Shown here piece after piece: positions 9,774 through 37,188 of a stretch of DNA of 64,000 bases (positions are counted from its first letter, which is position 1; each line of letters opens with the position of its first letter). This DNA comes from Neophaeotheca triangularis (taxonomy: Eukaryota): contig BAAIJX010000037.1 in assembly GCA_054600435.1 (NCBI GenBank), positions 124,001 through 188,000 on the forward strand, given 5' to 3'. Both the position numbers and the translations under genes were made by a program. Below the pieces are notes generated by a model, which saw only the letters and a list, made by a program, of their open reading frames with translations, made no database searches and was not told the DNA's origin.

Positions 9774-12700
9774 TCAGCTCCCCCCCTCACCAGCCTCACC
9801 CATGGGTCCGCGACTAGCCCACTCAGTGCCCGGACGATCGCGCCGAGTCCTGCGCGAAGAATTTACCGAGCGCTCCTGCCCATCAGCCCCGTCTCCTTCT
9901 CTCGCCTCGCCGGGCCGGTCGTTGATAGCCGGAACATCGTAATCCTCGCCATCAGAGTCCTCGCTCTCGGACCTGTTGATCTCCTCGTCCATTTCGTCGT
10001 CGTCCTCGTCATAGTCATCCATGACGGGGTCTCGAGGATCGTATCGCCCGTCGGCGTTGTATTTGTCCCTCTTGCGCACGTAGTCTTCGGAGTGGGCTGT
10101 GGCCATGGTGGTGCCGACGCGCTTGAGAGCCGCGAGCGTTGGGGTGTCGCCGCCACGTGGGGAATCCTTGGGACTCTTGGGGGTGTTTCTGCGGCGGAGG
10201 GAGGAGACGGCGGCAGTGACGGAGCGGCCGATGCGCGACTGCGACATGGAAGAAGACCGACGGCCGGCTTCGAGGTCGGCGCCACTAACATGGCTGTCGG
10301 CGGGGTTCAAGGCGGCGGAGGTGTCGATGGCTTCGCCGGGGTGGTTGGCTTCGCCTGTATGGTTTTGGGTGTCGGTCTTCACGGCGCCAGCGTGGCCCAT
10401 ATTCTGTTGGTTGCCAAGGAGCTCGGCAGAGGGGGAGTCACTGCCGCCGTCGAGGGTATAGGGTAGGGGAACGTCGCGACTAGCTCTGAAGCGGCCCATG
10501 TTGGTGCAGTGCTCGTTCTCTACGCGGAAGAGACTCCACAGACCTCTGCGTAAGACCTCGGAAGCGGCGAGCGAGAAGGCTATGATGCCGCTGTGTTGAA
10601 TGTCGTTGCGGAAGATCGCGTAGATGATCCAGTTGAAGCGGAGGATCGGGTCGACGACGATAGCAAAGTAATAGAGGGCTGGGGACTTATAGGCGAGAGT
10701 CGGTCGGAGGAATGTGTGCTTGGCGTACAAATCACCTAGCGACCAGTCCATGGCGATGTCCCAGACGCTGCAGTAAAGGCTGTTGATGGTGTTGAAGACG
10801 ACGAAAGCGGTAAAGTAGCTTGTTTGTTTGTCGATCCTAAAGAGGGAGATGGACATGTAGCTGAGGATAGTGAAGGTGTATTTGCCGCAATTCACCAGAT
10901 GTGGGAAAGCCTTGCGTGTATCGCAGTAGCGGCGGATGCACTGTATGGCTCGCCAGATTCCAGGTAGGGCCGTGAAGAAGCCGAGTAATCTGCTGTTGGA
11001 ACTATTGCATTGAGATGGCGAGGACCAGTGATGGGCGTAGAGGCAAAAGAACAAAGAGATATTGCCCATGGCGTAAGTGAGAGAGCAGAACATGTCACCA
11101 AGGAAGAAGTCACGAAATTCGACGCCCGTAACGCCTGCCGTGAGTAGACGAAACTGGAAGGTGTTAGCGTGCAAAACCAGGCTTCGGGACCGTGAGTATG
11201 AAAGACTTACGTTACTGTCCAAAAACCACCCCCGACTGCGCCAGTAAAAGTAGGGTGCAGGAAGGCACATCAACACGACAGATATGCCGACCAGAATCAC
11301 AGGCCAGTAGATGTACATGATCTCTCCGCCGATGCGTTCAAAGTTCAGTAGCATGACAAGGCCGAGCAGAAACATGAAAGTGGCCGGGATCTGCAACATC
11401 GTTAGCTTTTCTCTCGCCACCAAGTGCTCACGCTCCACTCACCTCTGCCAGTTGCCTCCAGTCCAGCACGTGCCTCGGGTCGAACTCGAAAATGAATTGG
11501 TAGTTAACCCTCGCGGTAGCAAAGATCTTGCAATCGAGCACGAACAGCCCAACCAGGAGCAAGGCCAAGAAGTATCCACCGTAGAGTTGAAGCAAGTAGG
11601 CGGTTTGCTCTTTGATGTCTGGAGTGGCCTCGAAGAGCAAGCGAGCACCCGATATCACCCCCATAATTGCCATCAGCAGCCCCGTACCCGCGAGCAGACC
11701 CAGCCTCATTGAACTGCCCGTGTAGTCGATGTCGTCTTTGACTCTGGCTCGGAGTTTGTTGACAGCAAACTTGTGGTTGCCTCGCTCAAAATACCGCGCG
11801 TACAGGTCTTCAACGGTCTGCATGTGGTTGTCGATGACATCTGACTTGTCAAAGTGGGCATGGTCTACATGCTCCGTCACGTATCGCAACCCAGGCCGTG
11901 CGTTCGTCGCTTTGTCGTACTTCTTGTTGATCTTGCGGAACGCCGTGCGGTTTGTGGATGAGTATGATTTCAGCTGCTCAAGAGACCTATAGTGCTCTGC
12001 CATGGCGACCTTGAGCTTACGTTTCGCCACGCGGTAGGGGACGTTGTGGTGGCGGACGTAATCTCTACGGGATTCGTCTGGATTTTGCCGGCGGCGGCCG
12101 GAGTCTGAGGTCCTTGGGTCTGTAGATTGGATCTCTGGACTGCCGAGCTCGCCCATCGCGGCAGACGTAGGGCCGAAACGGTTGGGGCGACGCACCTTAG
12201 CGAGCGCGTGGTCGATATGTTCGACTGCTGTGCCTACAAAGGGCGCGCTTGCCAACCGTGGCAACCGTGGCCGGAATCCGCCGTGAGTGCCCGGGTGGGA
12301 GCCTTTGCCTTCGCCAGCGGGGTTCTCGGCATGGTTCTTCTTCCTCTTGGCTTCCACAATCTCCCCCAGTCGCTGGGCGCGCATGACGTGTAGCTGCTCG
12401 CGGAGGGCGCCGAGCCGATCGGTGGCTTCGTTTTCCTTTGCAAGGTAAAAGCTTTCGACCTTCTCAAGTTCTTTGTCGAGGAAGGCGAAGAATTCTGCTT
12501 GTCGAAAGTCCACCTCGAGGTATGCTTCCAGGGCGACATCGTTGTCTGTCTGCTCCCTTGACGGTCCACCCTTCATGGAGAAGATCCGCTTCATGAAAGG
12601 CCTTTTGGAGTGCTCTGTGGCACTCGGCAGGGAGTTAACCCTCTTTGGCCGGAATACGCTGCGCAATCGAGGCGCTTGTAGAATCCTTGCGTGCTGGTTG

Positions 12701-13263
12701 GCGCCATCCAGGCCTGGCACGTCTCTCGGCGGATTGATCTCGTAGGCGTTGCCCGTGTGGCCCCATTGTGATGTCGGGCCTCGGGATTGCTCCGCTTCGA
12801 GCCAAGGGTTGGGCAGCTCGAGGGTTGACGCCTCTTCTGCCAGAGAGCGGTTAAGAGAGTCTATCGCTGGGTTCGGGTTCCTTGTCGGACTGCCGATGAT
12901 GCTACCATATCTCGTCATGCCATCATGGCCAGGGCGTCGGAGAACGTCTTGCGCGGACAGGGGACTACGCTCTGTGGGCGCACCTGTCTCTGTCGGCCGC
13001 CGACTCCTGCCGTGAGTCGTTGCCGCGACGCCCACACCGTCCTCAATTGCCCGCAGATCCTGGGGGCCGGAATCTAAGTTGCGACTTGAGGCCCGTTTGG
13101 TGGGCTCTCCCCGGATGGTCTTCTCCACGGATCGTGGGGTCTGGTCTGCAGACCTAAGGGCTCGCAAGACTGCCTTGAGTTTCTTCTTGCCCTGTTTGTA
13201 GTTGAGGTACTGGGCTCGCCACTCCGGTACCGCGTCCTGGTCTAGTTCCTTTGCAAACTTCAT
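9774..13263 (-). CDS. SYG1: SPX-EXS domain protein SYG1/XPR1 (phosphate export family); introns 11442-11391 and 11210-11154
   Basis: N-terminal MKFAKEL...YLNYKQGKKKLK, FFAFLDKELEKVESFY and AFRKINKKYDK (SPX). EFRDFFLGD, WDIAMDWSL and EVLRRGLWSLFRVENEH (EXS). Canonical splice sites seen. Confidence 0.95.
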
Positions 13264-14017
13264 GCTGGAAGGGAGGGTGAATGAGGGAAAATTTCAGTGA
13301 ACAGATCCATGGACGGATCAAAGACTATCGGTGCTCCCGGTGAGTGGTTAGGGATAATGCATGGCTGCTTAAGGGATGTATTTGAAGTTGTGCAAGCAAA
13401 CAATGGAGGTTTGTTTGGAAATGTGGAAGCTGCTGGCCTTGGCTGGCTTTCCGTTCCAGCTCCAGGGCAGGGTAAGCTTGCAAGTAAAGTGCACGCGACG
13501 CCCCGCTGTAATGGGCGCCTTGGCGTGTATGTAACAAGTACATTCAGCCGACGGTCCAGTCAATAGGCAGCGACTTCATCAGAACCGGAAGTCTCAAGAC
13601 AATCCATACCTACTAGGATGCAGGCAACGAAGACTGCAGGTGGTCGAGCGAAACAAGAGATGCGGTCAATACAAACAGCAGATTATTTAAGCTTAACATT
13701 ATACATGGATGTCTTGGATCGACATGCTTCCAATGACACCCAACGCTCTGCAAGGATCCGCGGCCTTCTTCACGGAATCATTTCAAATCAAGAAAATTCC
13801 GAGAAGCGACGGGAGGCTAAACGTGCATTTTGCTCAAAAAAGTCATTAACTGACTTGTTGTTGCTAATACTAGTAATTACCTATACTGCTCTTGCGGTAA
13901 GCGTGCAAATCGTTGCGACCAGGCGACTCCATACACACCCCCTGCCTTTAACCAGCTCCAATCCCCTCAACAGTCTTCCTAGCACCCTCAATCGTCTTCA
14001 TCAAAATCCCCAGTCTC

Positions 14018-14959: not shown

Positions 14960-16509
14960 AGTCGACGATATCTCAGGTGTCCATAGATGGAGATAAATCA
15001 GGACGTGTAATGAGTGAATGCAGGATTATCAAGAAGTTAAATAGGTAACTCTGAGTGTAGGTAATGAGGACATTTGAAGGTACCTGTCCTCGGTGCCTCC
15101 CTAGAGCCCGGGTAGTCGAACAATGTATTACTACCAAAGTAACTGATAGCAACATCTCCGATCGCATCCCTTAACAATTTGAAAGGACGGCCATTATTTC
15201 AATACAACAATATAACAAGGTAACATACCGGTAGTGGAAATCGACATTGCTATCCTCTCCGCCGGACCTCATACAGCGTTGAAGCCCCTGAACAAAACTC
15301 GCGGAAGACAGGCCTATACCAAACCACAGTGAAGCGATAAAATCGAGAGATACAAGATAAGGCCACACATCGCATCCTCCCCCTTCAATTGAGAATACCC
15401 GACTTTGCAAGCTCTCAAGATCACCGTACAATTCTCGCCTAATCCGCAAACGGACGTCCTCGCAACTCTTCGAGAAGCACAGAGTTCCAAACTCAGCAAG
15501 ACCTCAATGACTTCAGCATAGAACCAACAAATACCGCCTATGTAGTTGTAGACCTGAAGCGGGCATCGCAGCATGTATCATAGCTACGCTGCATCCGGCC
15601 AAAGGCGCATTGCGCATGTCTGGCGCTCCGCTAGCCTGCGAACTTCAACCGCCAGAGAGGCAGGCTGAGGCAGTGGACTCCGTTTCCGTTCAACAAGGCC
15701 GCTTGTGCAGCTGAATCGTCTTTTTCAGCCACGAGAAGGGGCTGCGAAAGAATGGAGTCGTTTATGCTGATACTTGTTCAGGGTTTGCTCTGGATTTCTT
15801 ATGCTTCACGTGGGTGCTTTGACGACGAAAGCCATGGGGGTGGCCGGACTGTGCAATATATCCGGCGTCATCTTGTAAGAACGATGTATAGGGCTCCATT
15901 GCTCTTCGTGCGGGGGTAAATAGAGCGGTGGTGGCGGTCAGAGAGTTGTGGGGTCTTTCCACCCAGAGGCAGCGACAAGTGAGACGGCATGGGAAGACTT
16001 GCTTTTTCTGCTGCAGGTACAGTCGACGCTTTGCTATTCTCACGCCAGCGTCGAGGTTTTGGAACAGCCCCCAAGCAGACGGCCCAGAAATTAAGTCGAC
16101 TAGTCACGTGCTCAGACTTTCACTTGTGAGTGCTCTTGCTCAATTGCGTTCCAGAAATGGCGGAAATTCACGCAGCAACTGGTTGGAGAGCAGCTGGGGA
16201 AGTCCAAGTGAATGGGATATTCCTGTTGGCATGTGCTATTACGACCGGCTACCTATGTCTTTGGTCTTGTGCAGTAGCTTCGACTTACACTTCTCCTCAC
16301 CAGCAACGTCGAATCTTCCTACAGGCAAGTCCGGGATACTATTACTACCTTTACCTGTATTCTTGAGCAATACTTCTCTTCATATTCATCACCAATACTC
16401 CTCCTCACGCTACAGTATAATAGATCAACGACACGAGCGTTCTATCGGCAGTCCAGCAAGAAACAGGGAACTCTGCCTCAACTTCACTCAATCTTACGCC
16501 TGCATCGTG

Positions 16510-17796
16510 ATGGCGAAGTTTTCCAGGTCCCCAAAAGACCTCCTAGAGAAAGACACCAACTCCTCGAAAATCACTCGCGGCGTCCCGGAGGGTACATCTC
16601 GAGCCATTCTCCCAACCCCTGAATGGTCCAAAGTCACTCCTGTCCTAGCGATGGACGCCGAATTCGTGCAAATCGACGGCAAATCCGTCATCGGCAGCGT
16701 CTCCGTCGTGAACGAAGACCTCGAAGCGGTCTACGACGTCTTCGCAGACCACGGCAACTTCGGAACGCCCAAGTGGGCCGTCAAACCTCCCATGCGCTGT
16801 CTCAAATTCGTGTGTAAGGAGGATTTGGACCCTGCCAATGGCGCGAGGCCGATCGAGGAAGTGCAGAAGAACTTGAAGCTGCTGTTTGAGGGGCGCAAGG
16901 TCGTTGGGCATGCGGTTCACTGCGACATCGGTGCCATTGGCGAGGAGACTGTGGACTGGGATAGAGTCGAAGTGAGGGACACGCAGGTTTTGGAGGAATG
17001 GCAAGAGTATTCCAAGGGGGTCTCGGGGCCAAAATTGGGGGTTCTGGCGGAGAAAGTCTTGGGCAGGAAGATTCAGCTCGATGGACATATGAGTTTGGAG
17101 GATGCGACGGCGACAATGGAACTGTACCTGTTGCGGAGGGATGCGATTGAGGAGCAGCACGTGGAGAACCCTCGACCAAGACCAGCCGTCAAGACGAAGA
17201 CAAAGAAGAAGCATGTGTCGCAGGTGACAGGAGTGGGAATCGTCTGGCAGAATTCCGGCCGCTGGTTCCTTGGCATGGAAGGCGATGAGGGTTTCGATAC
17301 CAGCCCGCATTTGGCAAACAACACTTTACCCCTCCCAGAGCAGGAGTATCTCGAAAGATCCAAGGTTGACCTGGTAAGCCAACACGCCAAAGCCGCCATG
17401 GATCTCCTCGCCGCGCTCCAAGCTCAGTCCAAGGACGAGAAGTTCGCTAAGAACCTGCAATCCATCATTCATGATTCCCGAGGCGTGTGCCGTCTCCTTT
17501 GGTACGAGGTCGAAGGGATATGGAAGCAGGAGCTCGCGGCCCGGGAAGCGGTCAAGCTAACTAACCCGGAATTTGTGCAAAAAGGCCTCGCGGTTAAGGC
17601 CATGCTGGAGGACCGTGTTGACTTGAGCGCGTTGCCGGAGGGTCTAAGCATCGAGCAGCATTTGGTGGAGATACTGCGCTTTATCCTTGCGATGCAGGCT
17701 CGGTGCCCGAGGATGAAGGCGTTGTGGAAAGCAGAGAGTGCTCTTATGGGGGGGTTGAAGATGCTTAGGAAGCTGGGAGTGGGGGAGCAGGAGTGA
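16510..17796 (+). CDS. DEDDh 3'-5' exonuclease, REX4/ISG20-like, with unrecognised helical C-terminal extension; intronless
   Basis: ExoI LAMDAEFV, ExoII VVGHAVHCD, RDTQ, ExoIII GRKIQLDGHMSLEDATATMELY. Start taken at ATG 16510 (MAKFSR). Confidence 0.85.
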   Translation: MAKFSRSPKDLLEKDTNSSKITRGVPEGTSRAILPTPEWSKVTPVLAMDAEFVQIDGKSVIGSVSVVNEDLEAVYDVFADHGNFGTPKWAVKPPMRCLKFVCKEDLDPANGARPIEEVQKNLKLLFEGRKVVGHAVHCDIGAIGEETVDWDRVEVRDTQVLEEWQEYSKGVSGPKLGVLAEKVLGRKIQLDGHMSLEDATATMELYLLRRDAIEEQHVENPRPRPAVKTKTKKKHVSQVTGVGIVWQNSGRWFLGMEGDEGFDTSPHLANNTLPLPEQEYLERSKVDLVSQHAKAAMDLLAALQAQSKDEKFAKNLQSIIHDSRGVCRLLWYEVEGIWKQELAAREAVKLTNPEFVQKGLAVKAMLEDRVDLSALPEGLSIEQHLVEILRFILAMQARCPRMKALWKAESALMGGLKMLRKLGVGEQE

Positions 17797-19245
17797 TGAT
17801 AGGGGAGGGTGGGGGATTGTCAACCGGCTTTTCTTTTGGGATGCTTCAAGCCTTTCGGATACATTCTATGCACATGCAGTGCTCAACAATGAATTGTGAT
17901 ATACCTTACCTCCCACAATTAGGACGTCTCCTCGATGTGGTCTGGGATGTAGTCTGCCCTCGGAGATTCTTCGTCCGAGTTGTGACGCTTACCTAAGCCG
18001 AGACTTCGCGACTTCCACCTGGGCATCCACTTCACTCCCTCTTCAATCACCACCTCAAGATTTCAAAAGTCCCACCGGAACTCCAGTTTATCGCCCAGAT
18101 AAATTGCTAATAAGCCGTGGACCTGGCCACAGTTAGTTGCGTCGTAAGCATCAGCAAAACCGCTGAGCCACCCATAGACCGCCTTCACGGGTGATTACCT
18201 CGGAAAGTCCAGAGAACGCCCCAGAAGCCCCGGTCAGCAAGCTAGTAATCCGAGCGCACTGAAAACATATTCGAAAGTTCCCAATGCGGACACGGCGGTC
18301 TGCCGTTGCGGTCGCGCAGAGCTGGAAGTGAGGCCCAGGACTCGCTTGCTACGCTTCTATTCAATCGCGAGCTGTTGCACGTCCTCGTTCACGGCCGCGA
18401 TCTGGCAAGCAATACAGATGCTCAAACATGGGCGACGTCCTCGAGATAAGTGAGGTTGACAAAATCTCTCGCTACTAGCGACCCATGTATCAACCCGCGA
18501 TGCAATACCCAACGCTTTGTTCGCGACTGGCCTTTTATTGACTGAAAGTGCTGACAAAAGACTTTTCTAAGCGCTGTAGCGGTCAATTGCCTTGTCTGTA
18601 ACTGGCTATTCGTCGAAAACATCTCACTAGCAATCTTTGACGCCACTTGACCACACAGCGTGAAGAATTTTGCGGTCGATCTTGGTGGGCCAGCACAAGC
18701 ACTTGGAAATCAGGGACCCCCGACTATGCAGTACCCAGGCTCGGACAACACATCCGGCGCGATTGTCGATACTGGAGAGATCTTTTAGCAGTCGTGGTAT
18801 TTCGAACTCTTGTCTGAAGCCCTCGTGGTCAACCACGACAGCTGTAATGATCAACAATCCTCAGCTTTGGTAGCGTTATTGGCTGCATTGAAAGCGAGGC
18901 GTAACAATGCCAGCACCATGGCTACCTTTCGTCCGCCGGCTCCCGGCCGCTGAACTGAGCTACTTATTGATATTGGCAAGCTGGTAATCAATTTGCTTAC
19001 AAGAATGGGCAGCGACTGCAAGCCATTGGCCAGGTGAGACAGTCCAATATTGCCCGCCCGGGACTCGGACACGTATACCATGCACTAAGTATTTCCAATC
19101 TTCTCCTCGCATCTTCCTCCATTTCCCTTCGCTTTTCTCTCCCGGGTCGTTTTTCGAAAATCTCCAGTAGCAGTGCGGTCAAAGTTGAAATTTCACAAGC
19201 GCGACGAATACAGCGACACCCCAAGGTCTGCTGAGGCTTTTCAGC

Positions 19246-22200
19246 ATGAAGCTAACCGGGATCGTCGCTTTCGCGGCCCTCCTGATCCCAATTCTCGCCC
19301 TTCCGGGCCCAATTGCACCCCAAGTGGCCTCGATCGAGCCTCGCGAACCGAAGTCAATTCTCAAGAAACCCAAGTTCCCCAAATTCTCTCGGCCGAAGCA
19401 TGAACCTCGCGACTGCCGCGTGGTGTCGAGGGACCATGAAGAAGGCACAGCCGCGCTGGAGTGCCGTAAGAAGACCTGGAAGCACTGTACCAAGTTGCCC
19501 CAGCCGGCGTCCGGCGGCTACCAACGCTGGCTCTGCGGCAAGGGCAAGAAGAAGACTGCGGTTATAGAAAACTGGCCTCACGCAGAGGGTGCTGATGAAG
19601 AAGACCTGCCTTTCGCCAAAGAAGGCCACACGCTCATGTCCCCGGAAACATGCGAGTCGACGACTGAAGGTTGCAAGGGCGCTGGTGACACGAGCGGATC
19701 GCTGGACGCTCTTCATCTCCATCCGTGGGACATACCAACGACTAGGACCCCTTCAGAGCCTGGGTCAGCTACAACTCTTCGGGTGCAGGCGGATCAGAAT
19801 GCGACCCAGACTGTCGGCGAGGTCACGGCCGTGACCACCATGACGGCCGACTCGACTGAATCAAGTCTTCCGCTCTTGAATTCTCGATACCGTCATACCG
19901 GTGGCAAGCAAACGCGAGATAACCCGTTCCAACTCGAGAAGCGTTATTTTGGAGAGGACGAGTACGGTGATTTCCCTGACCTCCACCTGGACGCATACAA
20001 GAAATGCTATGTCGAGTACACCGGTCCCGAAGGAAGGTCGACCCTATTCTGTAAAAAAAGCCCTGGTGTTCATGTTTACAAGGATAAGGGTGAGAGACTT
20101 ATCAACTGCGAACTACTGCGAGAAAGATCCAAGAAAGGGCTGAGACAATGGGACTGCCAGAGGCTGGGGGAGTTCGGTTCACTCGCGATCGAACATCCAG
20201 AGGCGGAGAGGGCGAAGAAGGAGGCGGATGAAAAAGAACAAAGAAGATTGGACTGGCACGCTGCGAGGAAGCAAAAGAAGGCGGATAAAAAAGAAGAGAA
20301 GAAGAGGAAGAAGGAAGAGGAGAAGAAGGCGAAGGAAGAAAAAAAGAAGGCAGAGCTCGAGGAGAAGGCACTTGAGGAAGCAGCTGGCCTCGGGAAGCGC
20401 GGCCAGCAAGTCACGTCTAATCCCAGCTCCGTTGATCCCCGTCTATTGAATTCTCGCGCTTGCTCGACGATTTACTCGATGCAGACGTACACAACAGTCG
20501 ACTCCAAATCAGACATGACGCAGACGAAGACCACTTCCATGCCCATGGTCACTTGCCCCGATTCCCTTCGGACTGTATCGCAAGACTGCAGGCCTTCATA
20601 CGTCTCCACCATTTACTACAGCAATGTCCCCTGCTCGAGTTGCTCGCATGGCTATTCGACGGAAACGCACACTGCGACGATGGGCGTTGTCAGCCCGGGA
20701 TGCACCAACGCCGTAGCAGGAACATCAGTGGCACCAACTCCCGCGCCGCAAAGCTCAATGGCTTCAAGCTCGATGGCTTCAAATCAGACCTCGCAGCCGC
20801 CGAACACGAGTTCCGAAGGCTCGACTGCACAAAGCTCGAAGCATTCGGAAGAAAGCCTCCAGCCTTCCAGCTCGAAGGTTCCAAGCGACACCGGCGCAAA
20901 CTCGCAGGCTCCCAGCATGTATCTTCAGACCTCGACAAAAGCATTCTCGATGCCCTCGAGCCTAGTGGGAGTCAACCCGACAGTTTCAAGCCCGCCAGAC
21001 CCCAGCTCGTTGGGAACAAACTCCATCGCCCCTAGTATGCTTTCTCAGACCTCGACGAACATTGCCTCGCTGAAGTCGTCTTTCGTCGCAAACACCCCGT
21101 CTAGCGCCAGATCATCGACCAGTGCTCGCTCAGCGAACCCTCTATGGACGGATGGCATACCCGGTTGGCCGAAGACCGAGTCGACGCAGCCAACATCTGT
21201 CACTTCTAGCTCGGTTTGTCATAGTGCGACGGATCCTGCTAACGTGGACGTAAATTCTATGATTGCGAATATGATGGGTTGTGGGAAAAGTGATAGTTCG
21301 GCTGAAGCTAGCTCTACTGGCGCAAGTTTGGTGAGTGCGAGTTCCACTAGTGTTGGCTCGACAAGCATGAGCTCGGCAGAGTCCCCCTCACCAAAGTCGT
21401 CCTCGGTGGCGATCAGCTCCAGTGAAGCCAGCTTGCCGGTATCGAGCATGGCATCTCCTACTTCGACACAAGGAGCAAGCTCGTTGGTTGCCAATTCGCC
21501 GGGGTCTAGCATGAAGGAGCCCACCCAGGCATCTATCAGCTGGCCGGCTCCCTCGTCTTCGATCGCCACAAGCAGTGCACCCACGCAACAACCACCGCCG
21601 TCACCGCCTCGACCGTCGCAGATGTCACCTGCTGGAAGCTCCACCAACACTGCAGCCCCTCCAAACGTCCAGCAAGAATCGCGACCAGTTTACCAAAACA
21701 GCTCTCCTGCCAATCCCTCCCAAGCACAACCCACTCCTACAGGGTTGAGCACACTGCCCTCGCCATATCCATATTTCCCTTCAGCAGCCCAGCCTGCCAC
21801 TCAAGAAGGAGCAACTTTCTCTTCATCTTACATCTCCTTTGTAGCGTCGACCGCACCAAACGCGGTGAATACGCCGCCACCGACCGTCCTAGATGCATTC
21901 AACAGGCCTCCAAACTCTCCTAACAACCCTTGGTACCACGCACGACCCGGCTATAACGAGGCAGACAATTACCACGCAGTACCCGTCGAGAACGCACAAA
22001 ATGTAGCTCCCGCACCCCAAACAGTTTATTACACTGTCACCAAGGCCCAGAGTCCCAACTCAGTGGTCTACAACGAAGCCCCACGCGTTCTGCAGGCACC
22101 AACCATGATGGCCAACAACCCAGCTTCAGGATCCCCCAATGTAGCTTACTACGAGCCGAAGCCCGCCGCTGTAGCGCCAGGTCAAGTGGTTGACCAAAAT

Positions 22201-23460
22201 CAACCGCAATCTATCGAGGTCATCACACCACTCGTGACCGTTCCTGCAAGCAATGTCCTTACAGTCTACGCTCCGCCGGTAACGGCAACCATGCGCCCCG
22301 TTACTAACGGAGGTCGCTACGGCTACATGGACCCGCAAAAGCGCAGCCTCGATTCATCCGGAGCCCCCCACGAAAGTGACCCGGACGGCAAGCTCCAGAA
22401 GCGCAACGGTGACAAAAAGGAACGCCACCGTTGCTCCATAATCAATCGCAACTTCGATACGGGGCTCGCAATGTTCCAATGCGGCAAAAAGGGCAAGCAC
22501 TTCTACCACGACTGCAGCCAAGTCATGACCAACCACAAAGACGGCTACCCGCGTTGGGTCTGCGGCAATACCAAGAGGAGGATCCGCGAAGACCAGCCGT
22601 CTCAAGAGAACTTCACTTTCCGCAAAGGTGACCCCAGCGCCAACTCGATGCTGCGCGTTGTCAACCCCAACATCCCCAACGCCGTCCCCGTCGGAGCCGT
22701 CCCCGGCAACGGCGGCAGCGGCGTCGTCCTGCCCCCCGCCGTCGTCAACCCCCTCGTCACAACCCACCTCACCCAAGTCCTCCCCGTCACCGACAAACTA
22801 GGCAACCTAATCTCCGAAGTGACGCAAGTCATCGCCACCCCGATCCTGCCCGGCCCAACCCCAGACATCGCCACCGCGCTCATGGGTCCCGTCATCATGA
22901 CCAAGCGCAATGCCGCAGAAGAAGACCAAGAACAACAAGCCACCCTCGCCGTCCGCCACAATGCCCCCAGAGCCCCGTACCAAGTCAACGACGTCTGGCC
23001 TCTGACGACCTGGACCGAGACTGTGCTCTTGCCGGAACCGAGCGGTGTCGAATATCACGTCATCCAGGATTCCCTCGCCAATGCGCCCAGGCCTGCGTTT
23101 GTCAAGGTTGAGAAGCGGGAGTTGGGGGTGCCGCCACCACCACCGTCGACGATGACGACGACGACGACGAGTGTGGCTCGTCTTGAGACTGGTTTTGCTA
23201 CTGTTGTTGCTGGCGAGGAAGGTGGCGAGGTGGTGAGTTGCGAGACTGCTGCTGCGGCTGTTGCGGAGTGTGCTAGATGCGGTGGATGCGGTGGATGCGA
23301 GGAGTGCAGTGGGTGCAGCCAGTGCGAGGAGATGTCTGAACAGCAAGGCCCGGCGACTCTGGCTTCTAGGCAAGGAGGCGGTGGACTAGGAGAAGTGGGC
23401 AAGGCGATGGGTAGAGGTTTGGGCAAGTTGTGGGAGAAGATCACACGTCGTGAGGGGTAG
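19246..23460 (+). CDS. Large secreted protein (1404 aa) with signal peptide, multiple Kex2-type sites, repeated 4-Cys modules, Lys/Glu coiled coil and Ser/Thr/Pro-rich regions
   Basis: Uninterrupted 4.2 kb ORF. Signal peptide MKLTGIVAFAALLIPILALP. Sites LEKR, LGKR, PQKR, LQKR, MTKR and VEKR. Confidence 0.85.
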   Translation: MKLTGIVAFAALLIPILALPGPIAPQVASIEPREPKSILKKPKFPKFSRPKHEPRDCRVVSRDHEEGTAALECRKKTWKHCTKLPQPASGGYQRWLCGKGKKKTAVIENWPHAEGADEEDLPFAKEGHTLMSPETCESTTEGCKGAGDTSGSLDALHLHPWDIPTTRTPSEPGSATTLRVQADQNATQTVGEVTAVTTMTADSTESSLPLLNSRYRHTGGKQTRDNPFQLEKRYFGEDEYGDFPDLHLDAYKKCYVEYTGPEGRSTLFCKKSPGVHVYKDKGERLINCELLRERSKKGLRQWDCQRLGEFGSLAIEHPEAERAKKEADEKEQRRLDWHAARKQKKADKKEEKKRKKEEEKKAKEEKKKAELEEKALEEAAGLGKRGQQVTSNPSSVDPRLLNSRACSTIYSMQTYTTVDSKSDMTQTKTTSMPMVTCPDSLRTVSQDCRPSYVSTIYYSNVPCSSCSHGYSTETHTATMGVVSPGCTNAVAGTSVAPTPAPQSSMASSSMASNQTSQPPNTSSEGSTAQSSKHSEESLQPSSSKVPSDTGANSQAPSMYLQTSTKAFSMPSSLVGVNPTVSSPPDPSSLGTNSIAPSMLSQTSTNIASLKSSFVANTPSSARSSTSARSANPLWTDGIPGWPKTESTQPTSVTSSSVCHSATDPANVDVNSMIANMMGCGKSDSSAEASSTGASLVSASSTSVGSTSMSSAESPSPKSSSVAISSSEASLPVSSMASPTSTQGASSLVANSPGSSMKEPTQASISWPAPSSSIATSSAPTQQPPPSPPRPSQMSPAGSSTNTAAPPNVQQESRPVYQNSSPANPSQAQPTPTGLSTLPSPYPYFPSAAQPATQEGATFSSSYISFVASTAPNAVNTPPPTVLDAFNRPPNSPNNPWYHARPGYNEADNYHAVPVENAQNVAPAPQTVYYTVTKAQSPNSVVYNEAPRVLQAPTMMANNPASGSPNVAYYEPKPAAVAPGQVVDQNQPQSIEVITPLVTVPASNVLTVYAPPVTATMRPVTNGGRYGYMDPQKRSLDSSGAPHESDPDGKLQKRNGDKKERHRCSIINRNFDTGLAMFQCGKKGKHFYHDCSQVMTNHKDGYPRWVCGNTKRRIREDQPSQENFTFRKGDPSANSMLRVVNPNIPNAVPVGAVPGNGGSGVVLPPAVVNPLVTTHLTQVLPVTDKLGNLISEVTQVIATPILPGPTPDIATALMGPVIMTKRNAAEEDQEQQATLAVRHNAPRAPYQVNDVWPLTTWTETVLLPEPSGVEYHVIQDSLANAPRPAFVKVEKRELGVPPPPPSTMTTTTTSVARLETGFATVVAGEEGGEVVSCETAAAAVAECARCGGCGGCEECSGCSQCEEMSEQQGPATLASRQGGGGLGEVGKAMGRGLGKLWEKITRREG

Positions 23461-24052
23461 ATTCAGGGCAGGAGTAGTAGACACGGCAGTGAGGGTGAGG
23501 GCCGAGAGTGAGAGTGAGAATGCAAGTGTGAGTAGGAGTGGTAGTAAGATTTTGGCAAGCAGTAAGGCAAGGTGGAAGAAAGGTAATGGGCGCTTTTGTT
23601 TCTTTTTCTATTTTCTGATTTCGGTGTGCGTGAGTAAGTAGCTTGATAATCTAAATATCCGGTAATACAGAAGTGGTTTTTTTGGAACCTCTACAACACC
23701 AAAGTCCACGGCAATGCGTCGCCGCGGGAAAGCTACCGACTGTGTATAAACCGAATCGTCCTGGTGCTTTGATCCCGGCGACCAACAACACCCCAAAGTA
23801 GGTAGTTCCGCCGCAACATCTCGCCCGCTTTCCCAACCCTCTGATATACCTTTCCTTGCTCGAACCCTCTCCAGGCGGCGGCGTTTTCCGTTTCTTTCAA
23901 GAAGCGAAGTGACACCCGCTCGCACCACGGTAAAAGTCTCAAGTCAGGCGGGTCCAAGATGATCTTGATATGCCTACAACAGACGCTAGGCAGTGAGCAA
24001 GCCGATGGCTTTTCCTTCTATCGAGAGCTAGTCAGTCGGTCGGTCAGCTGGG

Positions 24053-24091
24053 ATCCAATCCAATCCAATCCAATCCAATCCAATCCAATCC
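24053..24091. repeat. (ATCCA)n microsatellite
   Basis: Direct reading, about 7-8 copies. Confidence 0.9.
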
Positions 24092-27000
24092 GTAGCTCAA
24101 AGCCCTCGAGCTTCGAGATTTCCCCTACCTACCTCAGCGCCTGGTAGCTGGCTAGAGCCGTGTGCATCTGAGTGCGAGCTGGGTTGGGCAGCTGCAAAGC
24201 GCTCGACGGGGTTGGGTGTCGATGTTGGAGTCTTCTTCTCCCCCCTCCGCCCGCGGTCGTGGGCGCGGGAGAAATGATTTGGAGAGGGGTGTCGTGCTGG
24301 TTTTCTCGTCGAGACTACCTTACCGTTATGGTAGGGGTTTCGCCCGCCCCTCCTCCCCTCGCTGCACTGGAGTAGACTAGAAGAAGTACTACACGCGAGG
24401 CTTAGCAGGTGTGCTTTCCATCTGCACCCGGGATACATAGCACGCAAGACCCAGGTGGGCCAGGTGAGCCGCTTGGTTATTTACCTTACCTAAGCGTCCT
24501 GCCATGGCTAACTACCCAACATTGCTTTAGCCAAACCACGGTCGAGGGGTGCGGTTGAGCGCTGCGAAAGCGGCAGATACTGGTTTCCTCCGTTCTCTGG
24601 GGTTAAGAGGTTAGGGGGCAAGTTGGAAGGAAGATCAGGCTTGGGATAGAGAGGTTTGTGGAAGGTGATGGGTTTTGGGCGGTGGTGGTGAGGCTGTGCC
24701 ACGGTGGGAGATGTAGGGGATTACTCGTGGCGTTTTGGCTTTTGTGCTTTTTCTGGTCTTTGTGCTGCGCTGAGGGTGCTGTGTTATACAAATGTCTGAT
24801 GGTTTCTCGTCTGCCGTAGAATGGAGGGGTGGAGGCTGTGAGGGGCGGATAGGAGAGTAGAGTAGAGTAGAGACCGGTATCCACTAGTCCAAAGGCCCAG
24901 ACGACCAACGTCTCAAACGCAATACATACTTGGCCGGCCTCGAGGTCGATTGATAGTACTCAGCCGCCTCGCAGTAATACCCGTCCATCCATTCGACTCC
25001 AAAGAATCAACCCAGATACACCACAAACCCCTCGCCCGAAATCAGTTGATCAAACCTCATTCTCAAGTCTCCAACCTAGCCGCCATCGCGCAACGAGAGA
25101 TACAGAGACACTCTTTCCGCTTCCCAAAACCCGCTTACGCTCCGTACAACGTCCACGCTCCTCCCCTTCCAGAAGAAAAAGTACGCCAACAAATCAGCAT
25201 AGCAAACCCGACAGATGGCTTTCAGATCCACCAATAGTCGCATCTACCCATCACATCCACGCACACATCTGCGTAGTTTCGCTCGCTCGGCAACAAACGG
25301 CAGCGGTCCTTCTCATCCTCTTCGACTGCCTCGAATGCTTTTGCGTGCAGCAATAGACGACGCTGAGCCTCAGGGACCGGAGAAAAAAGTGATGAAGTCG
25401 GCAGCGCTGATTCCCAACCCACCTAAGTCAAAGGGGCGAAAGTTGTCACGTGTCTGCTTTTTCTTTCTTGCTCTTCTTTCATAAAAGGGTGAACGTGGAA
25501 ATTCCGAAAGATTGAACATGTTCAAGCAGTAGCTACATAGTACCTACACTTGACAAGAAGCAAAACGACAACGCCCGTCAACAACAAAGAGGAACAGATC
25601 TGCAAGAGCCCGCCCGCGGTTGCAACACCCCATCGCGCGATGACACCCGAGCGGCACGATCCGCAGGCAGCACGCATAGCATCCCCACGTGCCTTTTGTT
25701 GTCTGAGTTTGCAAATGCCGATGACAGCGATCGACACCGTTGATGGAAAAGATACATACCTAGGTAAGTTCGAAGAACACGGGAAGATGATGAAGAAGGC
25801 TCGATGGGAAAATCAAACTCCCACGACTATGAGTAATTTACTTCCTCGATCCGTGCGAGAAGGGGGCAATGAGCTCGATGAAGGAAATTTGGAGTCGATG
25901 GGCGGGCGAGCGAGTTCGATTTCCCCGATGCGACTTCTCGATGCGCGATGGGATGAAGTCGAAAGAGGATTGCAAGCCGCGTGACTTGTAAGGGCTTGGG
26001 GGTGGGGCTTGTGATGTTTGAGGGATGGAATTGGACGGATGGGGTTTTGAGGAATGTCGGTTTGTCGATTTGTCGATTTGATAGGGAGCTAGAGGGGGGA
26101 TCGGTGATGAGGGGACTGACGGGAGGTACCTGGGTGGAGGCGAGAGAGTGCGCGGAGAGTGGTGGTACCTGCGGAAACGGGGTGAGGTCATGGTGCGCCG
26201 TTGGTGCTCTGGGACGGGATGTTATAGGAAAAGGGGGGAAGGATGACGGAGGCAATGGGATGATTGAGATAAGGTACAGTGGTCTCGGATGGTGATCTTG
26301 TAGGTGAGTGAGTGGCCAAGGGGGGTCATCATGCCTATGACCTCAAGCGCCGTCGCCAGCCAGCGCAGGAGGCGGGCGGGCACGGCGGAGAAGGTGTTGG
26401 TGGCGGAACAGGCGCGAAGGTGGGTGCTAATAATGTGAGTCTAGGGTGTCGGGTCGGAAAGCAGGTTGCAGACGAACACGAGGATGGAGTTCGGGATGAT
26501 GCGTGCAGCGTGATGATATAGTAACACCTAATAAATTGGGTTTGCTCCGGGACGTGCAGCCATGAGGCTAGGAGGATTTGGCCGGAGACGTCATGTCTGA
26601 AAGACTAATAAAATATTGAAGTGTGTCGTGGTCGGGTGGAATTGTAAGGTTTTCATCGTTGGTTTTGGCTCTAATGGTTCTGAATTGTGAGAGTTTGGAT
26701 GGATCGTTCAGAAGGTGATTTTGGCGACGACTTTAATTTAGCAGGCTGTAGTAATACATTCTCGTCGTCAAAAGTCTTGCTGAAGCCATGAAGTTGTCTC
26801 GAAAAAGAAGCCGGCCAGCAAGTACGAAGGTAGAGGTAGAGACGCAAGAAAAATGGACCCTGCGTAGCACTCACCAGTCATGTTGAATTGAGAGACGTTA
26901 TAAGCATGATTAACATAATGTACCTAGGTAAGCGTGTTGCGGGTAAGCTCGCCGCAACCAACGCTCCCCAGATGAGACGAGACGAGACGAGACGACAAGC

Positions 27001-27933
27001 GAGACGACAAGGTCAGCCAAACCGAAAGCCCCCCCCTCCCCCCAAATTAAGCACCCACCCACAACTTCCTAGCGCAGCCACGACAAAAGACCCCTTTCAG
27101 CCATTTTACCATGTAGCCATGCCATGTCGATAAAGACCCTGCGTCAGTTACGCAACCCTGCATGACTCCAGTCCGCCTCCTTTCCATTCCCACGCCGATC
27201 CGATCGCGACACCCATCCCCGCCTTGTACAACCATCGAAATCATCGGACCTCTTGTTTGCTCTCGATTTCGACAGCGGTGGGGAGAGGGCATCGCTATCG
27301 AAAACGTTTCCGTCTGCGTGTCGCATCATCGCATGCAGGGTCTTGCGACTCTACGGCTTGGAAAGGGTTTTATTTGGGCTTTTTGCCTGGTGAGTTTGGG
27401 AAAAGGGCCGTGTAAGAGAGGGTGTAGGGGGATGGTCGGCAGGGCTACATGGGAGGTAATACCTCCTAGTCGAGTAGCTAGGTTGCGTTGAGGCGTGACG
27501 GTGTGCTGGGTTGGCATGATGCCGTGTTGGATGTGAGGTGGTAGGTCGTGGCGATGATGTATTATTATTGTTATCGCTAGCACCTGAGGGACGGGTTACG
27601 ACGACGCGCATGGTTCGTCGATGCTCTCTGCTCTGCTATGGCGTAGGAGGAGGTGACTACCACACGACGGCCAAGTACTTGAAGCATATCTTGTGCTGCT
27701 TGCCTTCGATCTTTCTTTTCCCCTTTCTCTAGCACACTCAAGACACACCGTACAAAGCACACGACCAAACCATACCATACTCCCCAACAACCTGACTGCC
27801 CATCTACGCCAACCTCACCACCAACCCTTTAAATCATACAAAGTCAACAGCAATTCCGACCTACTCGCCCTCAACCTTCCCTGTTCCAAGCCTCAACAAC
27901 GACACCACCAACACCCTAAACACGACAGCAACC

Positions 27934-28295
27934 ATGCCCGCACAAACCCAAGGCGTCTACGTGACGGAAAACTTCTCGGAGCCCATGAGCGCCCAGCACA
28001 ACTTCGCCAACCAATTCGACCTCAACAAGCCCGAAGCCGCTATGGGCGAGTACCAAAAGTGAGTTACCACACTGCAATCTTCCACAACGCGGTCACTCGA
28101 TCGTGAGCATGTCGAGTCAGTTGGTCGGACAGCCGCTAATTGTAATGTTTTAATAGGATCATGCACCAACACACGAAACGGCAATTCGAAGTGGCTACTG
28201 CGTCTTCGCGACGACGCAGTTCCGGCGAGGATTCCCGTATGACTGGCTTGCCTAGTGAGAGTAGCCGGGGGAGCGTTAGCTCTTCTGGTTCGTAG
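27934..28295 (+). CDS. Small spliced 87-aa protein (exons 27934-28058, 28157-28295), unknown function
   Basis: ACCATG start after a C/A-rich leader. Intron GTGAGT...GCTAAT...TAG. Splicing yields MPAQTQGVY...EAAMGEYQKIMHQHTKRQFEVATASSRRRSS...SSSGS*. Confidence 0.7.
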
Positions 28296-29117
28296 GGAAA
28301 GACTGAACACATCGCGTCGCATCGAGTGCGACGGGTGGAGGGTGGAAGAGGAGGCTTGTACGGATATTGGTATGTCGTGGTCGCTTTGGTCGATCAACGA
28401 TACTGCTGTCGGTTGATGATGGCTATGATGATGGGCTGGTTCCGTTTCGACTGGTCGCCGTCCATGGTTGTTACGATGATGAAGAGGCCTTGATTGCCTC
28501 TCTTTGGCATTGTTGGAGCGCTTTTTAGTCGCGCATAGCGGAGGTGTTCTGGCGTTCTTCTCTGTACTCTAATGTCTTTAAATGAGATGACAGAAATCAT
28601 TAGATCTTCATATTGTCGCACATTGCTACAGCCGCGTTGTCAATGGATACATGAGGTAGACTCCTATCTCTGCCATGTCAGTCGCAATCTCTAGACGGCT
28701 TGTTTGATGGGTTTACCCTACCGCCCATCCTTTCTTTCTCTCGAGCGTCTACAATCCACAAAAACATACATTCTATCCCCGTCGTCTTCAAGTAGTATGT
28801 AGTAAGTATTGAAGTATATAGTCATATTCTCTCCCGCGGGGAATCGATGCCTCAATGCAGATACGGCATACAGATAAGACAAGGCAGCTCCTCCAAAAAG
28901 CAATGCATTGCCGAAACTTTCAACGTGGGGAAGAAGCACCTCATCCCGCTTTCTTTGTGCACATGGCGATAAATTGTACATACGTACCCAACCTACACTT
29001 CACAATGCCCCATTCTCATCCTCAATAACAGACACCCCGTCAATCTCTCCACCAACCTCCACCCACTCACCCACCCACCCATCCACCCACCCAACACACA
29101 AGCCTCACCAACCCGCC

Positions 29118-35159: not shown

Positions 35160-36692
35160 TTAACTCTCCCTCGGCACCCCGCCATTCCTATACTCCCACA
35201 AGCGACTAACATCCTTGACCCTAACCTTGCCCTTGTCTTTACCCTTCCCGTCCCCCTTGCCCTCCAACCCCCCAACCAAACCACCATCCCTCTTCTCCCC
35301 CTCCCCAACCTCTCCAGCCCAATGCCCCGCCAACTTTCCCAAATCCCCCACCCCCTCGCTCAAACCCCCATGCCCACCATCCCCATCCACCCCTTCCTCC
35401 CCAGACTCCCCGCAAAACCCCTCCTTGACACGCAAATCCATAAAACCATTCCCATCCCGCACTCTCCAGCCTCCTCGCCCCTTCTCCCCTTCCCCGCCAG
35501 TCCCGAGCTCCCCCATCAGACCCCCGCGTTTCTCATTACCGACGCCGACCTCGCCTCGTCCCGGTTTGGAGGAATCTTCGAGTTGGAACATGTTGTCCAG
35601 GTAGTGTTGGTTCATGAGGTGTCCCGAGCCGGCGCGCACGAAGATCTTACCCACGTAGCGGTCCTCGGCGCACGCAAAGTGCAGCACGCCCCATCGTGCC
35701 ACGAAGTCTGTGCTGTTGGCGTAGTGTTCTATGTGTGGAATGACGCGGGCGGGAGGGTTGGCAGGGGATGCTGGGGTGGGAGCAGAGGGGTTGGGTCTTG
35801 TGGAAGCGTTGCGGGGGGCGAGGTGTGGGGTTTGGGACGCGGGGTTGGAGGGGACTTGGCCTTCGGTTCCGGTGCGGCGGAGCGGGGAGTTGAAGTGGTT
35901 GGCGGCGTTGCCGAAGGTGTAGACTTCGAGTTTGGAGAGGACGTCTTGGGAGAGTTCGGAGAGGAGCCAGTCTACGATTAGTGCGCTTTCGATGCCGCCC
36001 TGGCTGTGGCTGACGAAGATGACTTTTTTGTAGCGCGGGTTGTGGAGCGCGGTTTTGACGCGGGCGTATGCGTTGCGGACGTCGAGGGTCGCGTAGCTGA
36101 AGCAGCGTTGTAGGAGGCATTGAAAGATGTCGAAGATGATGCCCGAGGTGGGGTTATGGATTCCTGTGATGTGTCGACCGAAGGTTAGGGAGAGGAGGTT
36201 GATGTTGGATTGTAGCCAGTTGCGGCCGACGGCTACACCGTTAAGGAAGATCCAATATTCATCTTCGTGGGTGGGATAGTGCTTTAGGTCAACGGTGGAT
36301 TCGAGGACGGTGGTGTTGAAGTTGAGGAGGTAGCAGATATACTTATTGCTGAACCAGAAGACGCAGAGGTATGCAACGGCGACTCCCACCGGGACGACGG
36401 GGACGAAAGGTAGGATGAAGAGTGAGAGGAGGAAGAGTAGTTGCACAACTATGAGGATGCAGTGGAGGACGACGTTAGCGATGTTGTGGGCTGTCGGGTA
36501 AAGTTCGTCTAGTCGTCCTGATCGGAATGGCAGGATGGGAAGAAGGATTCCGGGGACGGCCCTCCATATTGTAAGGCAGAGGACTAGGTCATCCCATAAA
36601 AGTTTGAGTGGCGAACCGGTGTAAGGGCGTGGCTTTTTATCATTTGTCGGGCCTTTTGAGGTTAAAACTTGAGCGCTAGATGCTTCTGCCAT
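35160..36692 (-). CDS. Membrane-anchored alpha/beta-hydrolase-fold protein, intronless
   Basis: Hydrophobic N-terminal helices, FLNGVAVG, nucleophile elbow VSHSQGG, VYTFGNAA, HYANSTDFVA and GSGHLMNQHY. Confidence 0.8.
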   Translation of the reverse strand: MAEASSAQVLTSKGPTNDKKPRPYTGSPLKLLWDDLVLCLTIWRAVPGILLPILPFRSGRLDELYPTAHNIANVVLHCILIVVQLLFLLSLFILPFVPVVPVGVAVAYLCVFWFSNKYICYLLNFNTTVLESTVDLKHYPTHEDEYWIFLNGVAVGRNWLQSNINLLSLTFGRHITGIHNPTSGIIFDIFQCLLQRCFSYATLDVRNAYARVKTALHNPRYKKVIFVSHSQGGIESALIVDWLLSELSQDVLSKLEVYTFGNAANHFNSPLRRTGTEGQVPSNPASQTPHLAPRNASTRPNPSAPTPASPANPPARVIPHIEHYANSTDFVARWGVLHFACAEDRYVGKIFVRAGSGHLMNQHYLDNMFQLEDSSKPGRGEVGVGNEKRGGLMGELGTGGEGEKGRGGWRVRDGNGFMDLRVKEGFCGESGEEGVDGDGGHGGLSEGVGDLGKLAGHWAGEVGEGEKRDGGLVGGLEGKGDGKGKDKGKVRVKDVSRLWEYRNGGVPRES

Positions 36693-37188
36693 GATTGATA
36701 AAGTCTTAGTAGGATGATGACTTGATAAAGGCTCGATAGGAGTGTGTAGGAATACGAAAATCGAAGCGATGAAATGAAATGGAGGTGAAAGTTTTCCGAG
36801 AAGGGAAAGATGGGGGGATAAGGGAATAAGGTATTTGCTGTAGTAGTCGGCGACTACCCCGTCATCAGTCAGACTGATGTGATGGGGGAGGCTCAGCTGA
36901 GGCTACCACGAGACCAAGAAAAGAGATGGATGAGAAGTTTGAATTTCCAGTCTTGTTTTATGATGAAATAGACGGTAATCGATGTTTGTGGCCCCGAGAA
37001 AAGGGTATGAAACGCAGATGCAGATGCAGATGTAGATGCAGATGGGGAAGTCGGCCAAAGACACGCGTGGAGCTCGAGAAAAATAATTATGGGCATCGAA
37101 TGCCGCCAAGAATGGAACTTAGTCGATACTTTAGCCAGCTTGACATGACAAGGTTAAGCCACTCGAGGGTGAGCTAAGGGATATGGAT

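Follow-up and report, generated by a model that had tools for sequence, protein, structure and literature searches.

Fungal kexin precursors have become known above all as carriers of short peptides in repeats (pheromones, repellents and the cores of RiPPs, peptides made by ribosomes and modified after translation) or as single effectors with a pro-domain. In Ece1p, segments that are not identical each end in KR; Kex2p does the cutting, in the Golgi, and Kex1p the trimming (PMC12153327). Among the precursors known as KEPs, repeat units of up to 352 residues were found in one survey (PMC6339444), and in Hum3 a folded hydrophobin domain accompanies repeats that KR separates (PMC4617103). In the K2PP effectors (SnTox3, ToxA, SIX1/4/6), which are small and secreted, a Cys-containing domain follows a short pro-domain at the N-terminus, prone to disorder and closed by KR, RR or LxxR within the first half of the protein (PMC8528282). 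Proteins of the AFP, PAF, NFAP and BP clades are small, mostly cationic and disulfide-stabilised, with five β strands, six to eight cysteines and a gamma-core, and are released from a precursor (PMC11423270). Here, we describe a gene of Neophaeotheca triangularis found at 19246..23460 on the + strand of a window of 64,000 nucleotides (assembly GCA_054600435.1, contig BAAIJX010000037.1, positions 124,001 to 188,000), to which all coordinates refer. Its product is called P0001 below.

The orphan four-cysteine β domain that is present in three copies in this secreted, compositionally biased protein is a solid new element. We tentatively read P0001 as a member of an orphan fungal family, a large glycoprotein precursor that is secreted and that kexin would cut into about five to seven pieces; judged from the sequence, the chance that this is right falls a little short of even.

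Three copies of one four-cysteine domain

An earlier note on this DNA had described distinct cationic Cys modules in P0001. All are copies of one domain of about 60 residues with four cysteines. Module 1 (residues 50–112, C57/C73/C81/C97; 19393..19581), module 2 (residues 247–318, C254/C269/C288/C304; 19984..20199) and module 3 (residues 1056–1122, C1063/C1079/C1090/C1106; 22411..22611) lie, like every feature of the gene, on the + strand. They were delimited by alignment to one another, for module 3 also by AlphaFold, and score domain E values of 3.3e-33, 1.7e-30 and 2.1e-35, respectively, with hmmsearch. Across the alignment 11 columns are invariant, among them those of the four Cys, of a Gly and of a Trp two residues before Cys4; the loop between Cys2 and Cys3 is longer by 11 residues in module 2. 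The cationic character stood for module 1, which with its basic N-terminal flank (residues 34–112) has an isoelectric point (pI) of 10.0 and a net charge of +12, and for module 3 (pI 9.5 with flanks), but not for module 2 (pI 6.3). No fourth copy was found in the window by six-frame hmmsearch.

Module 3 was modelled by AlphaFold2 from a four-row alignment as five β strands, with a mean predicted local distance difference test (pLDDT) of 80.5 and a predicted template modelling score (pTM) of 0.65. Foldseek, run with this model against the PDB, gave no match at E <= 0.001 (best E 0.21, TM-score 0.41), and the weak neighbours were small β-barrels of the cold-shock/OB type (TM-scores 0.32–0.36). 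Foldseek against BFVD likewise gave 0 matches at E <= 0.001. Pfam, searched at E <= 10, gave nothing above cut-off for P0001, for each module, for residues 386–505 and 1221–1404, or for P0002, the relative described below. Zinc-finger-type Pfam matches (E 0.06–4.9) were set aside as reflecting Cys spacing alone. PDB sequences gave 0 matches to the whole of P0001 at E <= 1, and queries of the ESM Atlas with residues 1040–1130 and 21–400 gave no usable match. With the module profile, the perforin-2/MPEG1 chain 6sb1_A was reached in the PDB at E 0.013 (19 bits); this match is marginal, and no MPEG1 chain was among the 50 Foldseek matches listed. The four-Cys module is thus a domain without a Pfam, PDB-sequence or Foldseek counterpart.

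All 1.84 billion representative proteins were searched with a profile built from the three modules, at a threshold of E <= 0.001. Three proteins passed, namely P0001 itself, P0002 and P0003. The single true relative found is P0002, a protein of 803 residues (E 7.5e-34) with three matching stretches. P0003 (E 1.2e-6) was rejected as a simple repeat of a unit of about 56 residues present seven times, the best stretch of which covers 19 profile positions only. Word-index searches with P0001, with its residues 1–320 and with the P0002 and P0001 alignment found no further relatives, which is a weak negative, as the alignment search returned P0002 only and missed P0001 itself; low-complexity matches take up the 8000 candidates considered, so that true relatives are lost.

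P0002 follows the plan of P0001, with a leader, module 1, a linker, module 2, repeats rich in S/T, LEKR, module 3, a stretch rich in A/P/V and two tandem hydrophobic units. It has 12 cysteines in all, exactly the 3 × 4 of the modules. Identity between positional counterparts of P0001 and P0002 is 44%, 28% and 57% for modules 1, 2 and 3, and 20–39% across positions, so that module 3 is the best conserved copy. As every module resembles its positional counterpart most, the triplication predates the split between P0001 and P0002, and all three copies have been retained. In P0002 as it stands, the K/E-rich block, the Y/V/P-rich block, the extra cysteines and the CxxC tail of P0001 have no counterpart.

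Candidate Kex2 sites and the proposed processing of P0001

P0001 begins with a putative signal peptide (residues 1–20; 19246..19305), consisting of K2, a hydrophobic core from L3 to L19 and then P-G-P. The call is a hydropathy heuristic backed by the similar start of P0002 (MKL and a hydrophobic core), and no cleavage point was assigned. Kyte-Doolittle windows of 19 residues reaching 1.5 or more are N-terminal only. In agreement with the earlier note, no transmembrane segment or glycosylphosphatidylinositol (GPI)-type tail was seen in P0001; the C-terminus is hydrophilic, its last 20 residues having a mean Kyte-Doolittle value of -1.0. A scan of P0001 for DGQ, which we take to be the PIR repeat motif, found none.

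All six dibasic sites listed in the earlier note were recovered by motif scan. LEKR (residues 230–233; 19933..19944) conforms to the Kex2 consensus and ends 21 residues before the first Cys of module 2, and LGKR (residues 382–385; 20389..20400) also conforms. Ahead of module 3, PQKR (residues 1030–1033), an acidic spacer of 16 residues and LQKR (residues 1050–1053) together span 22333..22404, with PQKR starting at 22333 and LQKR, 10 residues before the first Cys of the module, at 22393. MTKR (at 22897) ends a conserved hydrophobic motif (residues 1202–1221; 22849..22908), and VEKR (residues 1288–1291; 23107..23118) is the last. Further KR dipeptides occur in KKRKK (residue 353, in the K/E-rich block) and in TKRR (residue 1110, in module 3). 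The sites of the L/I-x-x-R type named in the earlier note (IEPR, LLNSR twice, LAVR and LASR) are likewise present; IEPR, a non-canonical LxxR-type site (residues 30–33; 19333..19344), lies 13 residues past the signal peptide. Kex2 prefers an aliphatic residue at P4, Lys or Arg at P2 and Arg at P1 (PMC8528282), and favours acidic residues at P1′, P2′ or P4′ (PMC2515848); three of the six KR sites have an acidic residue at one of the latter positions. In the model of residues 1021–1404, PQKR, LQKR, MTKR and VEKR are predicted to fall beyond the folded module, in segments modelled at pLDDT < 50, while TKRR1110 would sit on strand 5 of module 3.

Enrichment was scored with 5000 composition-preserving shuffles per pattern, and a block version shuffled within blocks of 100 residues. 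Bare KR occurs 8 times in P0001 against 3.28±1.75 expected (fraction of shuffles reaching 8, 0.014), [LIVM]-x-K-R 5 times against 0.54±0.71 (0/5000 shuffles, and 0.0016 of block shuffles) and [LI]xxR 12 times against 4.51±2.04 (fraction 0.0014). The density of [LIVM]xKR is 3.56 per 1000 residues, about 8-fold that of 19 other frames of the window (0.45); these are stop-to-stop frames of at least 300 residues, 8875 residues in all, and not curated genes. For the extended consensus this enrichment is real; for bare KR it is modest.

The earlier note had tied its polyprotein to the conservation of the KR sites among orthologs, and in P0002 this holds in part. MTKR1221 aligns exactly with MGKR711 (...MGPVGMGKR) within the conserved motif. 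Two sites have a dibasic nearby: in place of LEKR233, P0002 has RRR, 8 residues ahead of a conserved FG.E..DFP.LH stretch, and in place of LQKR1053/PQKR1033 it has LEKR463, in an unalignable linker 26 residues before module 3. VEKR1291 aligns with MVVR, with the P1 Arg alone kept. IEPR33 and LGKR385 have no counterpart. A dibasic site thus precedes modules 2 and 3 in both proteins, by 21 and 10 residues in P0001 and by 24 and 26 residues in P0002, a spacing that random placement produced in 3.5% and 2.6% of simulations, respectively.

Taken together, the leader, the lack of an anchor, the enriched sites and a layout partly shared with P0002 favour the Kex2-type polyprotein of the earlier note, but its blocks are not ten independent cargoes. 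Its figure of about 10 released peptides or domains is too many: the six KR sites would give seven pieces, of 213, 152, 648, 20, 168, 70 and 113 residues, and five to seven is more realistic. Processing by kexin into about this number of pieces is plausible. The hydrophobic leader would direct P0001 into the endoplasmic reticulum (ER), where each module would form two disulfides and the S/T-rich parts would be O-glycosylated. In the late Golgi, kexin (Kex2/KexB) would cut where [aliphatic]-x-K-R is exposed; the most credible cuts are at LEKR233, at LQKR1053 and/or PQKR1033, and at MTKR1221, with those at LGKR385 and VEKR1291 less sure. Efficient cutting at an exposed KR in the linker is established practice with carrier fusions that filamentous fungi secrete. 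Such cuts would separate the three modules from one another and from a mucin-like middle piece of about 650 residues. All three pieces that bear a module are positively charged overall (pI 8.5, 8.9 and 9.6) and would likely bind anionic surfaces outside the cell, such as the cell wall, the matrix or a membrane. Binding of this kind would fit a role in competition or defence and a surface-coating role alike, and is our best guess at present. The effector or antimicrobial function suggested by the earlier note is speculative. More ambitiously, the modules could form a new fold family of cationic mini-proteins, released by kexin from one giant polyprotein, along with a carrier of the mucin type and a hydrophobic peptide ending in KR, and directed against competitors or hosts; we regard this as unlikely.

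Several observations weigh against processing. Only one of the six KR sites is identical in position in P0001 and P0002, two having a nearby dibasic, one the P1 Arg only and two nothing; LEKR233 and IEPR33 lie in insertions relative to P0002 (of 12 and 9 residues), and LGKR385 is without a counterpart there. The KR excess of P0001 is weak under 100-residue block shuffles (0.080), and P0002 is not significantly enriched, with 3 KR against 2.40 expected (fraction 0.44) and 2 [LIVM]xKR against 0.42 (fraction 0.066). The flanks of the modules are basic, so that dibasic pairs are likelier there by chance. Heavy O-glycosylation or structure could block the sites, and structural constraints do block the proteolysis of some predicted Kex2 substrates (PMC2515848). 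The model of residues 1021–1404, from a two-row alignment, has a mean pLDDT of 39.6 and is confident over module 3 only, and the low values outside the module may reflect the scarce information in an alignment of two sequences, not disorder. Module 2 is near neutral (pI 6.3 for residues 234–318). Finally, the evidence on conservation comes from one homologue and thus from a single comparison.

Alternatively, P0001 could stay essentially intact, as an adhesin or matrix glycoprotein of mucin-like kind that is secreted or attached to the wall. The modules would then be binding domains on a glycosylated stalk, and the KR pairs would be by-products of the basic flanks of the modules or be shielded by glycans. 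The sequence between modules 2 and 3, about 650 residues rich in S, T and P with 30% S+T, would suit such a stalk, and P0002 has S/T-rich repeats in the same place. No KR directly follows modules 1 and 3, so that long tails would remain even after cutting; P0002 lacks KR enrichment and most sites are not conserved in position. Against an intact protein, P0001 has no GPI-type tail, transmembrane segment or PIR-type DGQ motif by which it could be retained in the wall, and the consensus [LIVM]xKR is enriched roughly 9-fold, a count that none of the 5000 shuffles reached. The four C-terminal sites fall in linkers that are modelled with low confidence and would normally be open to Golgi kexin, and both proteins have a site shortly before modules 2 and 3. 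An intact glycoprotein is a possibility to be taken seriously, if one that we think will more probably prove wrong.

The conserved hydrophobic motif suggests another reading, in which P0001 would be a precursor of small peptides of the KEP type. Its cargo would be the hydrophobic unit of about 20 residues ending in MTKR, with the acidic piece of 20 residues between PQKR and LQKR, and the modules and the mucin-like part would act as its carrier or chaperone. Of all linker sequence, only the motif P-x-x-D-[IL]-x-[ST]-A-[LI]-M-G-P-V-x-M-x-K-R can be aligned exactly, and it is tandemly duplicated in P0002, where the two units (residues ~690–733) end in GKR and YKR and the second is bounded by KR on both sides, as a KEP-like unit of 22 residues; YKR733, which ends this second unit, has no KR partner in P0001. 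KR-ended peptides are released from a non-repetitive precursor in Ece1p as well (PMC12153327). P0001, however, has a single copy of the unit, short of the three or more repeats by which KEPs are recognised (PMC6339444, PMC7329392), and the only KR preceding it is the TKRR within module 3. The unit is proline-rich and is modelled without a helix. Moreover, no gene of the DUF3328/UstYa type, which would point to a RiPP cluster, was found in the flanking frames scanned (38 entries, 22 + 16, a few in both scans). We consider a small-peptide precursor quite unlikely.

The modules could also be distant members of the AFP/PAF group, the gene then being a multi-copy precursor of antifungal proteins. 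Their small size, the cationic character of modules 1 and 3 (see the pI values above) and the five β strands in the model of module 3 speak for this, and the general shape and the maturation from a prepro-form are as reported for AFPs (PMC11423270). The agreement with the small barrel of five antiparallel strands of AFPs (PMC11423270) is one of strand count, and the weak Foldseek neighbours are small β-barrels. Yet each module has four Cys and not the six to eight, in three to four disulfides, of AFPs, and neither a gamma-core nor a sequence match to the family (PMC11423270) was found. The gamma-core GXCX3-9C, or its levomeric form, occurs in none of the six modules of P0001 and P0002; the pattern matches P0001 at the CxxC cluster and C136–C143 only, and P0002 nowhere. 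In addition, Pfam gave no match above cut-off at E <= 10, no AFP structure was among the 50 Foldseek matches listed (0 at E <= 0.001), and module 2 is near neutral. By these marks P0001 is not an AFP/PAF member, and even a distant kinship of its modules is very improbable. That the ORF is no real gene and merely a chance or decaying frame in low-complexity DNA is scarcely credible: the sequence is mostly of low complexity, other frames are open across it and almost no relatives exist among the 1.84 billion representatives, but the frame runs for 1404 codons with a leader at the first ATG, P0002 has the same module order with domains at 44–57% identity amid unalignable linkers, as selection on the folded parts would leave it, and module 3 is modelled with confidence.

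Gene structure, compositional blocks and neighbourhood

The gene was defined as a single exon of 1404 codons plus the stop by an open reading frame (ORF) scan, an intron-signal scan and the GC content of third codon positions (GC3). The frame is uninterrupted and starts at the first ATG past an in-frame stop at 19189. Scanned crudely for the intron signals of fungi (donor GTRMGY, branch NTRAY, acceptor YAG), the ORF showed 0 candidate sets, and GC3 along it ranges from 0.47 to 0.83. AGTGAG-type repeats occur in the first 60 bases 3′ of the stop codon. Several overlapping frames at the locus are likewise open, over 90–199 codons each.

The compositionally distinct blocks that the earlier note had listed (K/E, S/T, Y/V/P, CxxC and tail) were all seen. 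A charged K/E-rich block (residues 319–381; 20200..20388) follows module 2. It has no counterpart in P0002, its DNA consists in part of AAG-type tandem repeats (20275–20349, periods 3/21/24), and its sole Pfam match is compositional (CAF1A_acidic, 18.6 bits, under the cut-off of 26.4). The S/T-rich mucin-like region (residues 386–800; 20401..21645) has 17–24 S+T per window of 50 residues and holds 8 Cys (residues 406–486 and 658/679), none of them conserved in P0002. It is followed by a low-complexity block rich in P, Y, V, N and A (residues 801–1029; 21646..22332), for which P0002 has no alignable counterpart. Towards the C-terminus, a CxxC cluster of seven Cys at period 3 (residues 1332–1360; 23239..23325) overlaps a DNA tandem repeat (9-bp unit, 4.8 copies, 23276–23318), and P0002 stops earlier. 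Both the K/E-rich block and the CxxC cluster have the look of repeats that expanded in frame recently, not of conserved domains. As they coincide with tandem repeats in the DNA and P0002 as it stands lacks them, they are unlikely to be cargo. Finally, the amphipathic C-terminal tail (residues 1383–1401; 23392..23448) has the highest helical hydrophobic moment of P0001 (0.72 at residue 1384) and is predicted, with low confidence, as a helix at residues 364–381 of the model of residues 1021–1404.

The neighbours of P0001 are ordinary or housekeeping genes, including a protein kinase, a GH31 protein, an SPX-EXS protein, MTHFR, TAF6 and a Fungal_trans regulator. The SPX and EXS domains are in adjacent frames (11428–13293 and 9774–11438, − strand), presumably one gene of the SYG1/PHO type that an intron or a change of frame divides in the stop-to-stop listing. 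Just upstream of P0001, a frame of 634 residues (15892–17796, + strand) has no Pfam match above cut-off and a weak match to RNase_T/exonuclease (E 0.0027, 18.7 bits, cut-off 24). Downstream, about 5 kb (23500–28800) contain short frames only (<= 203 residues), without Pfam match, and a frame of 580 residues at 35160–36902 (− strand) has no Pfam match either. No tRNA genes were found in the window, and no Rfam family reached the gathering score. The Pfam content of the window, with Fungal_trans and genes split over several frames, is that of a filamentous fungus.

Comparison with known Kex2 substrates

Our survey of the literature on Kex2 precursors returned known classes only (Ece1p, KEPs, AFP/PAF and K2PP), the family of P0001 having no name that could be searched for. 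If P0001 is a precursor as proposed, one with three folded disulfide domains, kept since before the split of two lineages, would widen the picture of kexin precursors, and, under the unlikely reading given above, the release of several cargoes would make it a kind of secreted precursor not yet described in fungi. The four-Cys module would add a domain family to those known, and, being small and confidently modelled, it should lend itself readily to expression, structure solution and assays. For now the value is limited, as the family has two known members.

Like P0001, mucin-like glycoproteins that fungi secrete or place in the wall have long S/T/P-rich regions and a signal peptide. Wall proteins such as those of the PIR family are trimmed by Kex2. 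P0001 differs from GPI- or PIR-anchored wall proteins in having no GPI signal, transmembrane segment or PIR repeat. From the AFP and PAF proteins, of which one copy stands behind a short prepro-sequence, it differs by its three copies in a giant precursor. IEPR33, ahead of module 1, has the form of a K2PP site, but lies in the 9-residue insertion missing from P0002; moreover, K2PP effectors are small single-domain proteins, whereas P0001 has several sites along 1404 residues.

Ece1p, the candidalysin precursor of Candida albicans, shares with P0001 a signal peptide followed by differing segments bounded by KR (PMC12153327). It has 271 residues and eight short peptides that are unstructured or helical, whereas P0001 has 1404 residues and would give pieces of 20–648 residues, three of them with a disulfide β domain. 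A sequence relationship between the two was not detected, Pfam giving nothing and the module-profile search giving P0002 only.

The KEPs (α-pheromone precursors and Ustilago Rep1, Hum3 and Rsp1) are, like P0001, secreted precursors with a repeated unit separated by dibasic sites. One survey asks for an ER signal peptide, which P0001 has on hydropathy, and for repeats making up at least 15% of the protein; the modules amount to 63 + 72 + 67 = 202 of 1404 residues (14%) in P0001, just below this limit, and to 64 + 73 + 68 = 205 of 803 (26%) in P0002, above it (PMC6339444). The same survey looks for at least three similar motifs between KR, RR or KK; the modules of P0001 lie in three KR-bounded pieces (not clustered), which internal KK pairs would fragment (PMC6339444). 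Another definition, of at least three tandem repeats of at least 8 residues and none above 100, leaves P0001 out, its module-bearing pieces having 213, 152 and 168 residues (PMC7329392). The unit of P0001 thus differs from that of the KEPs in being a folded four-Cys domain, the copies of which are not in tandem but dispersed, 130–750 residues apart.

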